The notes: generated by a model from the sequence alone, not told the origin. Counted from the first letter of the stretch, positions 6,386-27,482 are shown. The stretch is 51,290 nt of DNA from an uncultured Pseudomonadota bacterium (GCA_902771095.1 CACXVH010000002.1:1-51290), one strand, 5' to 3'. Numbers and translations: made by a program.

Positions 6386-6929
6386 CGATAATATCCCTTA
6401 ATTCATCCAGCCCGATTTTCTTTTCAGCAGATGTTTCCAATATTTTTTCAACCATCGCAGGATGATTTTTGTGTTCAATTTTTAATTGTTCTTTTTCACG
6501 AATGCGTTTATCTTTTTTTGTATAAACAATTTGATAACAGATTCCATTTTCATCGCAAAAATTCATTAAATCTATATCAGAATCTTTGACACCAACCCTT
6601 GAATCTATCAATATAAATAACCGTCTTAGTTGCGAACGATTTAATAAATATTCTTCCAGCCGTTGAAGCCAGCGCATTGCTTCTACCTTGGACACACGTG
6701 CATATCCGTAACCCGGCAAATCAACAATCATTGATTTATCGCGTATATTAAAAAGATTTAAACTTTGTGTCCGACCCGGTGTATTCGAAGTCCGCGCAAT
6801 CTTTTCATTTACAATCGCATTTATCAGCGAAGATTTGCCAACATTACTACGCCCGACAAAAGCATATTCGGCAAATTGCGTATTCGGCAAAGATTTAACA
6901 TTTTCAAAAGAACCAACGAATTTTATCAT
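6375..6929 (-). CDS. engB: Ribosome biogenesis GTPase YihA/EngB
   Basis: GRSNVGKSS, DLPGYG, TKKD motifs. Confidence 0.95.
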   Translation of the reverse strand: MIKFVGSFENVKSLPNTQFAEYAFVGRSNVGKSSLINAIVNEKIARTSNTPGRTQSLNLFNIRDKSMIVDLPGYGYARVSKVEAMRWLQRLEEYLLNRSQLRRLFILIDSRVGVKDSDIDLMNFCDENGICYQIVYTKKDKRIREKEQLKIEHKNHPAMVEKILETSAEKKIGLDELRDIIGVK

Positions 6930-25354: not shown

Positions 25355-27124
25355 TTAATTTTTATTACGAATTTTAATATGAACATCGCGTAATTGTTGT
25401 TCACTGACTTCATTCGGCGAACCCATCAGCAAATCTTGACCGCGTTGATTCGCAGGGAATGCCACAGTTTCACGAACACTGTCACCATCACCCAAAATTT
25501 CTGAAACCAATCTATCGATACCAAAAGCACATCCACCATGTGGTGGCGCACCATATTTAAATGCAGTATAAAGCGCATTAAAATTCTTTTCGACTGCTTC
25601 AATTGGGTATCCAGCAATATCAAAACATTTTTTCATAACTTCTGGATTATAATTACGCAATCCACCGCTACAAATTTCAAGACCATTAAGCACCATATCA
25701 AATTGAGCCGCCTTGATTGTAAATGGATCTTTTGTATCCAACTCTTCCAAAGTTGCAAGCGGATACGAAAAAGGATTATGCGTGAATGCTGGTGCGCCAC
25801 CACGTTCTTCATCTGGTTCAAAGAACGGGAAATTATCAACCCAACAAAAAGCAAAATCACGCGGATTTACCAATCCTAAATCAGCGCCCAGTTTATTACG
25901 CAAGCGACCTGATGCCTTAGATGCAGTATCAACATTATCACATACAAAGAACAACGAAGAATTATTCCCAGCAATTTCACGCAATTTCGCGATGCGATTC
26001 TCATCTAATTTTTTTGCAACTGGTCCCTTGGCTTCTTCGGCAAACACGATATACCCAAGTCCGCCAAGCCCCAATTCTTTTGTTGCATATTCGCCCAATT
26101 TATCAAACCAAGAACGCGGTTTATCTGCGCTGTTCGGTGCAGGAATTGCACGAACCACAGCCCCATTTTCAATCGCATTTGCAAAGATTCCAAAATCAGA
26201 CCCGCGGAAAATTTCCGTCACATCACTGATTAAAATTGGATTGCGCAAATCTGGCTTATCACAGCCATATTTCAACATAGCATCATCAAAAGATATATGT
26301 GGAATTTCTGGATAAACATTTGCATCAGGCGCAAAAGCACGAACCAATTCAGGAATAACTTTTTCGCCAACCTCTTGAATTTCTGGCAAATCAACAAAAG
26401 ACATTTCTAAATCCAGTTGATAAAATTCCAGCAATCTGTCCGCACGCAAATCTTCATCACGAAAGCAAGGCGCGATTTGAAAATATCTATCAAACCCAGA
26501 AACTTGCAACAATTGTTTAAACATCTGTGGTGCCTGAGGCAACGCATAAAATTTGCCATGGTGCAAACGAGAAGGGACCAAGAAACAACGCGCACCTTCC
26601 GGCGAATCAGCAGTTAATAACGGTGTTTGAAATTCAGAAAAACCCAAATCCCACATTTTATCACGCAACCATTTTATCATCTTGTTGCGCATTAAAATAT
26701 TGTTATGCAATCTTTCACGCCGCAAGTCCAAGAATCGATATTGATAACGCAATTCTTCGCTTGTATCATCATCACCAAATACTTGGAAAGGCAGAACTTC
26801 TGCATTAGTCAACACCTCCCAATTTTGTGATTGAATTTCGATATGACCGGTTGGAATTTTATCGTTTATCGCATCACTGCTACGTGCAACAACTTTACCA
26901 GTAATTTTGATAACAGATTCCGGACGAATTTTTTCCAAATTTTCGTCCCCCCCATCGAACACACACTGTGTTATTCCATAATTATCACGCAAATCAACAA
27001 ACAATAACGAACCATGATCACGCTTACGATGAACCCAGCCAGACAATGTCACTGTTTCACCAACATTTTTTTCATTCAATTCACCACAAGTATGTGTGCG
27101 GTATTTAGATTTCAAAGATAACAT
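25355..27124 (-). CDS. aspS: Aspartate--tRNA ligase, probably non-discriminating
   Basis: YRTHTCGEL, RDHG, LPQAPQ, CFRDEDLRADR, GAPPHGG; start MLSLK after AAGGG. Confidence 0.96.
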   Translation of the reverse strand: MLSLKSKYRTHTCGELNEKNVGETVTLSGWVHRKRDHGSLLFVDLRDNYGITQCVFDGGDENLEKIRPESVIKITGKVVARSSDAINDKIPTGHIEIQSQNWEVLTNAEVLPFQVFGDDDTSEELRYQYRFLDLRRERLHNNILMRNKMIKWLRDKMWDLGFSEFQTPLLTADSPEGARCFLVPSRLHHGKFYALPQAPQMFKQLLQVSGFDRYFQIAPCFRDEDLRADRLLEFYQLDLEMSFVDLPEIQEVGEKVIPELVRAFAPDANVYPEIPHISFDDAMLKYGCDKPDLRNPILISDVTEIFRGSDFGIFANAIENGAVVRAIPAPNSADKPRSWFDKLGEYATKELGLGGLGYIVFAEEAKGPVAKKLDENRIAKLREIAGNNSSLFFVCDNVDTASKASGRLRNKLGADLGLVNPRDFAFCWVDNFPFFEPDEERGGAPAFTHNPFSYPLATLEELDTKDPFTIKAAQFDMVLNGLEICSGGLRNYNPEVMKKCFDIAGYPIEAVEKNFNALYTAFKYGAPPHGGCAFGIDRLVSEILGDGDSVRETVAFPANQRGQDLLMGSPNEVSEQQLRDVHIKIRNKN

Positions 27125-27189
27125 TTTACACCCTTTTACTTTTGTCCTGGTGTCAAATAATTGGATTTGGCACCAATTCAAATCTTAAA

Positions 27190-27292
27190 TTTCAGGGGCG
27201 CTAAGATTTTTTCGCGCGGTGCCACCCTGATTTTTTACTTTTTGTTTTTTTCAGATATTCCGCGGTTGTCAGTCGCATCACTACATCTGATA
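27190..27292 (-). promoter_or_regulatory. T-box riboswitch-like leader of aspS
   Basis: AATCAGGG-TGGCACC-GCG...CGC-CCCTGA antiterminator; upstream K-turn hairpin with loop ACTGACAAC. Confidence 0.75.
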
Positions 27293-27326
27293 AAAAACGA
27301 ACAAACGCAAGATAGATAATGCATTT

Positions 27327-27482
27327 GTGGTGCCCCTGCTTCATAGAAGTTGGGACAACTGGAATAGATTCTATACTGAAATTATCCGGAATGCAAGGAT
27401 TATTAAGGAAAGCGGCATTTCTGACATATTACGAGTCGTCAACGGCGGATTTGTGCCCAATCGCAAGAAATCAAAACCTTAA
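27327..27482 (+). pseudogene. 51-codon orphan tail (VVPLLHRSWDNWNRFYTEIIRNARIIKESG...), possible recombinase C-terminal remnant
   Basis: Open frame starting at the tRNA-end repeat, same phase as the end of the acyltransferase gene. Confidence 0.35.

Follow-up and report, generated by a model that had tools for sequence, protein, structure and literature searches.

The window, by which we mean the whole stretch of 51,290 nucleotides that was analysed, carries a gene for an aspartate-tRNA ligase, aspS, on its minus strand. Upstream of the gene, on the same strand, is a leader whose sequence reads as a T-box element spanning 27192-27290. The features are listed below from the 5' end of the leader to the gene, together with the evidence from which each was read.

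27251..27290, minus strand: Stem I, a single hairpin (sequence and fold)
27283-27290 with 27251-27258, minus strand: lower helix of Stem I, 8 pairs (sequence)
27280-27282, minus strand: 3-base bulge of the K-turn, with sheared G.A/A.G pairs formed by 27278-27279 and 27259-27260 (sequence)
27274-27276 with 27262-27264, minus strand: upper helix of Stem I, 3 pairs (sequence)
27265..27273, minus strand: specifier end loop of 9 bases, ACUGACAAC (sequence)
27268-27270, minus strand: specifier triplet GAC (Asp), followed by a purine at 27267
27231..27250, minus strand: A-rich linker of 20 bases, occupying the place of Stem II, IIA/B and Stem III of other T-boxes
27192..27230, minus strand: T-box discriminator core, or antisequestrator (sequence and RF00230 alignment)
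27225-27230 with 27192-27197, minus strand: helix A1 (sequence)
27218-27224, minus strand: T-box bulge of 7 bases, UGGCACC (sequence)
27214-27217 with 27198-27201, minus strand: helix A2, closed by a 12-base loop
27141..27182, minus strand: downstream hairpin (fold), whose 5' arm carries GGUGCCA at 27168-27174
27128..27136, minus strand: ribosome-binding region AAAGGGUGU, G-rich and atypical for the genome
25355..27124, minus strand: aspS, 589 residues, bacterial-type aspartate-tRNA ligase (translation; NCBIfam NF001750)

The aspS product scores 718.1 bits on NF001750, where the cut-off is 443. The ATG is at 27124, and the T-box core ends 67 bases upstream of it. The initial annotation had proposed a T-box-type leader before aspS, and all of the pieces listed are present on the minus strand ahead of this gene. 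We take the bulged element in Stem I to be a K-turn on the basis of the K-turn consensus, and its UGA...GA letters are present in 86 of 87 distinct leaders (the set is described below).

At the gathering threshold, Rfam reports tRNAs alone in the window, and no T-box. RF00230 aligns to just the antiterminator part of the model (positions 183-216 of 219), with E values of 0.012 in a local search and 0.005 genome-wide. The comparison with Rfam T-box models that had been suggested as a check was thus borne out for the core, which aligns at 21 bits, and not for the rest: the score is a long way short of the gathering score of 93, and the remainder of the model has no aligned counterpart. When an E-value threshold was used instead, Plastid-rps12 and mir-29 matches also appeared at 27104-27189, and with E of about 0.2 these were set aside as chance. 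The exact 12-base T-box core occurs a single time in the genome of 818,487 bases; with one mismatch allowed there are 4 matches, which is the control level, since the reversed pattern also gives 4. The predicted fold recovers both domains, with a z score of -2.45 and 3 of 200 shuffles equally stable. Because the RF00230 match is weak and limited to the core, and the one-mismatch matches are at control level, the case rests on comparison with relatives. Genome-wide searches with RF00230 and with the covariance model described below found no other T-box in the source genome. On the plus strand at G000:C5:64864-64957, some 1.8 kb downstream of a lysS-like gene, RF00230 aligns over its full length but very weakly (11.1 bits, E 1.8), and this match is probably chance.

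The element was found in all 30 aspS leaders from the same genus, with the core equally far from the start codon in all of them. When the structure read from the source sequence is laid on the 30 aligned leaders, 90.1% of the cells are paired, and 15 of the 24 pairs show compensatory change, being altered on both sides. None of 500 shuffles matches these pairing and covariation values, and sliding the partners by 1-3 columns lowers the paired fraction to 35-52%. Changes on both sides are seen in all 8 pairs of the lower helix and in 2 of 4 upper pairs of Stem I. The T-box core does not vary among the 30 leaders; around it, covariation is seen in the outer pairs of A1 and the inner pairs of A2. 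The linker carries a conserved AAAGU-N-A-Y-AAA stretch in the same alignment. In four of the leaders, on different branches (L004, L006, L013 and L027), a GC-rich hairpin of about 27 bases and of the type UCCCAC...GUGGGA is inserted between the downstream hairpin and the SD sequence (alignment columns 201-230); it resembles a small repeated or mobile element.

A covariance model built from the 30-leader alignment has one match in the source genome, at 110 bits; two further weak matches there (E 1.26 and 2.29) were rejected as chance. The model matches 124 of 151 genomes sampled from the order and 118 of 121 from the family, and the element spans at least six genera. Eight weak matches were inspected. 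Six are fuller T-boxes before aspS-type genes, and two, L074 and L076, are unrelated plain GC hairpins and were discarded. At E up to 1 no T-box was found in aspS leaders from families f3 (three genomes), f6 (one genome) and f2 (one genome), so the element is patchy within the order.

A pattern scan was also made of named genome records, in which 80 of 119 stretches were listed. Among these, at least 32 loci have the same leader; 7 are titled Candidatus Enterousia and most of the others Alphaproteobacteria bacterium. A further 26 of the 80 were judged by eye to be chance matches, several of them sharing one protein-coding motif. One Candidatus Enterousia leader (L136) differs by a single base over about 83 bases from a leader of the same genus as the source (L019). 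NCBI places the genus Candidatus Enterousia in the Alphaproteobacteria, and the placement of the host in that class by the initial annotation agrees with the names in the clade, which includes records named Candidatus Enterousia or Alphaproteobacteria. In the portion of its text available, a 2025 paper assigns Candidatus Enterousia to the uncultured order Rs-D84, with reduced genomes in all members; riboswitches and T-boxes are unmentioned in that portion. At the level of sequence comparison, we regard it as confirmed that a real, conserved and strongly reduced T-box precedes aspS in a gut alphaproteobacterium with a tiny genome.

The degree of reduction can be described from 100 covariance-model matches, which give 87 distinct sequences. 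From the first pair of Stem I to the last pair of A1, the whole element measures 94-106 bases. Across the 87 leaders, Stem I and A1 are separated by a linker of 18-25 bases (median 21) that is 53% A, and not one of the 87 linkers folds with a minimum free energy of -2 kcal/mol or below, i.e. there is no Stem II, IIA/B or Stem III. This agrees with the earlier description of a K-turn hairpin with its specifier in the end loop and neither Stem II nor Stem III. A purine-rich AAAGU...AAA string remains in the linker. Stem I has no distal platform for the tRNA elbow: the 9-base loop sits directly on 3 pairs. The pair at the base of A2 is G-C, and not G.U, in 30 of 30 aligned leaders.

In two further genera of the family, and in families of the order beyond it, aspS-type genes are closely preceded by fuller T-boxes. 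A fuller form also occurs in one unrelated alphaproteobacterial family with small genomes, and a class-wide search with RF00230 gave 2 matches among 151 genomes, sampled at about one per family. In the Rfam alignment the fuller forms have a Stem I cut to around 7 loop bases, a Stem II region of AGUA type and a IIA/B pseudoknot, with Stem III present in some. They score 31.9-55.9 bits on RF00230, and their loops contain GAC or AAC. Since relatives of the same order retain Stem II and IIA/B, it is most likely, judged from sequence comparison, that Stem II, IIA/B and Stem III were deleted secondarily within the Candidatus Enterousia family. The simplest reading of the order of events would be that the fuller plan is ancestral in the order and that the deletion in the Enterousia family came later. 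A single order would then hold a deletion series from the fuller to the minimal form, and the aspS leader looks like the smallest natural tRNA-sensing T-box to date.

The same hairpin form of Stem I is found in other lineages. At least 20 loci in MAGs of uncultured gut Bacilli/Tenericutes (for example L094:2199-2272, L095 and L167) have a K-turn hairpin as Stem I with a 9-base end loop. Among the matches listed, the loop triplet is GGA in 16 and GGC in 4, the bulge is UGGA in 20 of 20, and 19 have a GlyRS gene downstream in the same orientation, in some cases with a short ORF in between. The twentieth locus stops 560 bases past the core. Three of the downstream proteins were confirmed as glycine-tRNA ligase. 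The UGGA bulge fits the U73 of tRNA-Gly. These glyS leaders have no Stem II, and they keep a short Stem III and a terminator with a U run. A 2024 paper on glycyl T-boxes contains no occurrence of 'truncated', 'terminal loop' or 'ultrashort'.

The hairpin is also present in a Parcubacteria MAG (L114:4666-4778), with GAC and a UGGC bulge, before a gene for an archaeal-type aspartate-tRNA(Asn) ligase (477 bits vs 353), and in a Eubacteriales MAG (L154, about 6545-6622), with GAC and a UGGC bulge, before hisS. The hisS leader has a hairpin at the position of Stem III followed by a U-run terminator. In comparison with the Gly-type and Eubacteriales leaders, both this hairpin and the terminator are absent in the Enterousia family alone. 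The Parcubacteria and Eubacteriales occurrences show that the design is spread over distant phyla. Comparison of the Asp and Gly lineages shows that triplet, bulge base and gene change together: GAC or AAC with UGGC goes with AspRS-type genes, and GGA or GGC with UGGA goes with GlyRS (19 of 20 listed loci). The match of codon and gene, which the initial annotation had proposed to look for in other aaRS leaders of the source genome, where no second T-box was found, is therefore seen across lineages.

The specifier itself is highly restricted. At loop positions 4-6 the 87 distinct leaders have GAC (73) or AAC (14) and no other triplet, and the base that follows is a purine in all 87. Loop positions 7-9 are more varied, with AAC in 63, GAC in 10, AAA in 6, AAU in 3, GCC in 2, ACC in 2 and AAG in 1. 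On account of this exclusivity the first triplet behaves as a codon restricted to Asp and Asn, and the second triplet shows no consistent codon behaviour. The expectation that orthologous aspS leaders would conserve the specifier was correct, if AAC is admitted beside GAC. Positions 2 and 7 of the loop (27272 and 27267 in the window) show a further pattern in the 87 leaders: A at position 7 is found with C (71) or U (4) at position 2, and the combination of C and G never occurs. This may reflect an intra-loop C.A, U.G or U-A pair, or shared ancestry.

A FastTree phylogeny was made of 54 distinct full-length AspRS proteins, 49 with a GAC leader and 5 with an AAC leader. The AAC label needs 5 changes on this tree, at least 4 of which are forced by well-supported branches. 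The switch from G to A has thus been recurrent, and the next two letters of the specifier have never been altered. Genes for tRNA-Asp (GUC) and tRNA-Asn (GUU) are both present in the genome, and in each the discriminator is G73 and the CCA is encoded; the UGGC bulge is complementary to the G73-CCA end of both. The match between the bulge C and G73 of the two tRNAs, which had been assumed, is therefore present in the source genome itself.

No asnS gene scores above the curated cut-off in the source genome, nor in 101 genomes of the family. Matches below the threshold, at 127-243 bits, occur in 15 of the 101, and the two of these that directly follow a T-box both look like a second, archaeal-type AspRS. 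The source genome does contain gatB. With gatB present and asnS absent, AspRS must charge tRNA-Asn as well, so the gene content makes a non-discriminating AspRS, as had been suspected, likely. Uncharged tRNA-Asn is in that case as valid a report of AspRS shortage as uncharged tRNA-Asp, and because AspRS also charges tRNA-Asn, lineages can move the specifier to AAC and monitor tRNA-Asn instead. It may also be that GAC accepts tRNA-Asn by means of a G.U pair, in which case the switch would report both substrates. In two sister genera (L082, genome G161, and L084, genome G155) the minimal T-box stands before a second, archaeal-type AspRS-like gene and not before a bacterial-type aspS; one of the pair has AAC and the other GAC.

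The region between the core and the gene gives indications of the mode of control. The GGUGCCA heptamer in the 5' arm of the downstream hairpin is the exact complement of the 7-base bulge, and it resembles the GCCA 3' end of the tRNA. Within the genus this arm is invariant, and the 3' arm varies in ways compatible with pairing (G-C to G-U, U-G to U-A). Of 85 distinct leaders, 74 have GGUGCC somewhere between the core and the start codon, 23 of them as the complete heptamer; in background sequence GGUGCC occurs 1.4 times per 10,000 bases. In sister genera that have no downstream hairpin, GGUG(C/U)C is itself the SD sequence, 5-11 bases before the start codon. For comparison, AAGGA precedes 96 of 411 crude gene starts in the genome and GGGUG precedes 5. 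Pairing between the SD window and the bulge region has a mean energy of -7.3 kcal/mol, as against -3.1 for shuffles, and 81% of the 85 leaders fall in the best 5% of the shuffles.

The predicted minimum-energy folds contain two modes of SD masking across the leaders. In one, the C-rich 3' strand of A1 is predicted to pair with the SD sequence. The other has the heptamer paired to the bulge and the freed arm of the hairpin paired to the SD sequence. Covariation cannot identify the real off-state pairing, because there is no variation in the bulge, in the 3' strand of A1 or in the heptamer. Nearest-neighbour modelling yields no clear-cut switch: the antisequestrator and its alternatives are close to isoenergetic, with a mean SD accessibility of 0.37 in the on state and 0.23 in the off state. 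When capture of the bulge was modelled, SD accessibility fell in 14 of 30 leaders, rose in 7 and did not change in 9, and the models with the antisequestrator forced, with it excluded and with the bulge captured gave no consistent opening or closing. Translational control, in which masking of the SD sequence would compete with a tRNA-stabilised antisequestrator, is the most likely mode; we have lower confidence in the details of mimicry and relay.

A promoter scan gave 3 sites where 1.9 are expected from shuffles, which is not above that background. A PolyA RNA-Seq contig covers 26715-27220 with 50 differences, and so derives from a relative; DNA carry-over is possible, and the contig does not reveal a transcript start, end or level. 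Just 5' of Stem I, at 27300-27372 on the minus strand, are two stable hairpins (z -3.75, none of 200 shuffles equal) which end in the tRNA-like GGGGCACCA. At this same spot, directly before the leader, several relatives have the end of a complete tRNA-Thr(GGU) gene, and RNA and DNA contigs of other strains diverge into tRNA sequence there. The hairpins may be what is left of a tRNA, and aspS may share a transcript with a tRNA.

We infer that the leader is a working, drastically reduced T-box riboswitch which tunes aspS expression to the charging of tRNA-Asp, and we put the probability of this at about 0.7. The GUC anticodon of the tRNA would pair with GAC in the end loop of Stem I, as suggested by the conservation of the codon and by its match to the gene. 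The K-turn and the purine-rich linker of about 20 bases would bring the uncharged GCCA 3' end to the UGGC of the bulge; the complementarity is read from the sequence and the binding is a prediction. This contact would lock the A1/A2 antisequestrator and leave the ribosome-binding site open, and when there is no uncharged tRNA the G-rich ribosome-binding region would be masked. The masking could be direct, if either the C-rich 3' strand of A1 or the bulge pairs with this region. Alternatively it could go through a relay: the invariant GGUGCCA heptamer would occupy the bulge, and its hairpin partner, thereby freed, would pair with the SD sequence.

A bolder version would be that a T-box of about 100 bases reads tRNA by two pairings alone, codon with anticodon and UGGC with GCCA, without an elbow contact, Stem II or Stem III; that the GGUGCCA mimic fills the bulge until uncharged tRNA displaces it; and that the specifier flips repeatedly between Asp and Asn, AspRS being non-discriminating. 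Taken jointly we hold these proposals only tentatively, and doubt that all of them are right. According to the part of PMC7583486 available, Stem II is essential once Stem I is truncated, an antiterminator without Stem III binds tRNA poorly, and the aminoacyl group is sensed mainly by the G.U pair at the base of A2. Stem II, Stem III and the G.U pair are all absent here, so by the published account poor binding of tRNA would be expected. The loss may be made good by the purine string (AAAGU...AAA) together with the extended A1, the RNA may have help from a protein, or it may no longer switch.

Help from a protein would mean that the RNA is too small alone, and that a partner such as a K-turn-binding protein of the L7Ae type, or AspRS, holds the tRNA or does the switching. 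The near-universal retention of the K-turn letters noted above is consistent with this, as are two statements in the available part of PMC7583486, namely that K-turn proteins may aid T-boxes and that Stem II and Stem III, both missing here, normally give most of the binding energy. However, direct pairing with tRNA explains the covariation of codon, gene and discriminator without any protein, and we consider this explanation rather improbable. Lost switching would make the leader an evolutionary relic, a structured but non-switching RNA kept for mRNA stability or for constitutive translation. Three modules are missing, G-C replaces the G.U sensor pair, and in some leaders the antisequestrator is predicted to be stable by itself (P up to 0.92), all of which a relic would explain. 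It would not explain a 14-base core that is invariant, a loop triplet that is GAC or AAC in 87 of 87 leaders even though the change from G to A arose at least 4-5 times, helices with compensatory changes, or persistence over at least six genera. Together these indicate selection on exactly the letters that would contact the tRNA, which argues against lost switching and makes a relic the least probable of the explanations considered.

If the leader does respond to tRNA, control could still be transcriptional, by Rho-dependent or cryptic termination, and not translational. Most known T-boxes are transcriptional (PMC7583486, in the part available), and the look-alike leaders of glyS in Bacilli and of hisS in Eubacteriales have a hairpin and then a U run. 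In the Enterousia family the picture differs: no terminator-like site was found on the minus strand from 27192 to 27124, the 30 aligned leaders have no U run behind the downstream hairpin, and in several sister genera it is the bulge-complementary GGUG(C/U)C that serves as the SD sequence. Transcriptional control thus appears very improbable. A further question concerns which tRNA is read. In a dual-register sensor the adjacent codons, GAC then AAC, would let tRNA-Asp and tRNA-Asn each bind in its own register, and the flexible linker might tolerate a shift of 3 bases. One AspRS has to serve both tRNAs, and the Clostridium acetobutylicum transamidation operon reportedly has a two-codon T-box, which would be a precedent. 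An Asp and an Asn codon do stand in tandem in 65 of 87 leaders (58 GAC-AAC and 7 AAC-GAC), and the second triplet is GAC in 7 of 14 AAC-first leaders as against 3 of 73 GAC-first leaders, a contrast that overstates the association because the sequences are related. The second triplet is neither an Asp nor an Asn codon in 14 of 87 leaders (AAA, AAU, GCC, ACC or AAG), while the first always is one, and the base next to the first triplet accords with the purine that T-boxes conserve after their specifier. Moreover, G at loop position 7 occurs solely alongside U at position 2 (12 of 12), a coupling that points to a structural constraint within the loop and not to a second codon. The dual GAC and AAC register suggested by the initial annotation is therefore weakened, and we think it unlikely. 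The preferred reading remains a single-register T-box acting on translation.

The literature searched, full-text papers on T-boxes in Alphaproteobacteria, Patescibacteria and Saccharibacteria, contains no report of such an element, and TBDB may already list such sequences. In the available part of the TBDB paper, the translational-class model was run just on Actinobacteria and on Rfam matches with a truncated Stem I; the aspS leader has no Rfam match at the gathering score. A 2008 survey, in the part accessible, gives T-boxes in 2 of 125 proteobacterial genomes, both of them deltaproteobacterial leuA leaders. The present element would extend T-boxes into the Alphaproteobacteria, and the class with an end-loop Stem I past ileS. 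The current structural view, as presented in the part of PMC7583486 available, is that a T-box needs either an elbow platform or Stem II, and that Stem III is integral to the charge sensor. A conserved and selected element without platform, Stem II or Stem III would define the true minimum for sensing the identity and charge of a tRNA. It would moreover supply synthetic tRNA-responsive switches with a compact part and offer structural biologists a small target, and its specifier switching would track the dual substrate range of a non-discriminating AspRS.

Among known systems, the glyQS T-boxes of Bacillus and Geobacillus are like the aspS leader in having no Stem II and a single-stranded linker between Stem I and the discriminator (PMC7583486, in the part available). 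They differ from it in their long Stem I with an elbow platform, their Stem III and their transcriptional mode; the aspS leader has neither platform nor Stem III. The same source, in that part, ascribes the tolerance of glyQS to strong GGC:GCC pairing. The GAC:GUC pairing of the aspS leader is weaker. With RF00230 as a whole the leader shares the antiterminator part of the model and nothing else that aligns. The two-codon T-box of C. acetobutylicum is said to be tied, like the aspS leader, to tRNA-dependent formation of asparagine and to be able to sense tRNA-Asn; it is reportedly full-size and transcriptional with overlapping codons, whereas the aspS leader has GAC or AAC at one fixed position in each lineage.

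The closest resemblance is to the ultrashort (US) ileS T-boxes of Actinobacteria, of the Mycobacterium smegmatis and M. tuberculosis type. Both have a short K-turn Stem I with the specifier in the end loop and no distal platform to bind the elbow, and in both control is probably translational, by masking of the SD sequence. According to a 2023 preprint, in the part available, all US T-boxes regulate ileS. The aspS leader differs in its gene, its specifier GAC and its alphaproteobacterial host, in having no Stem II S-turn, IIA/B pseudoknot or Stem III, and in having G-C instead of G.U at the base of A2. The fuller relatives in the same order, with Stem II and IIA/B, share the plan of the actinobacterial ultrashort ileS T-boxes.
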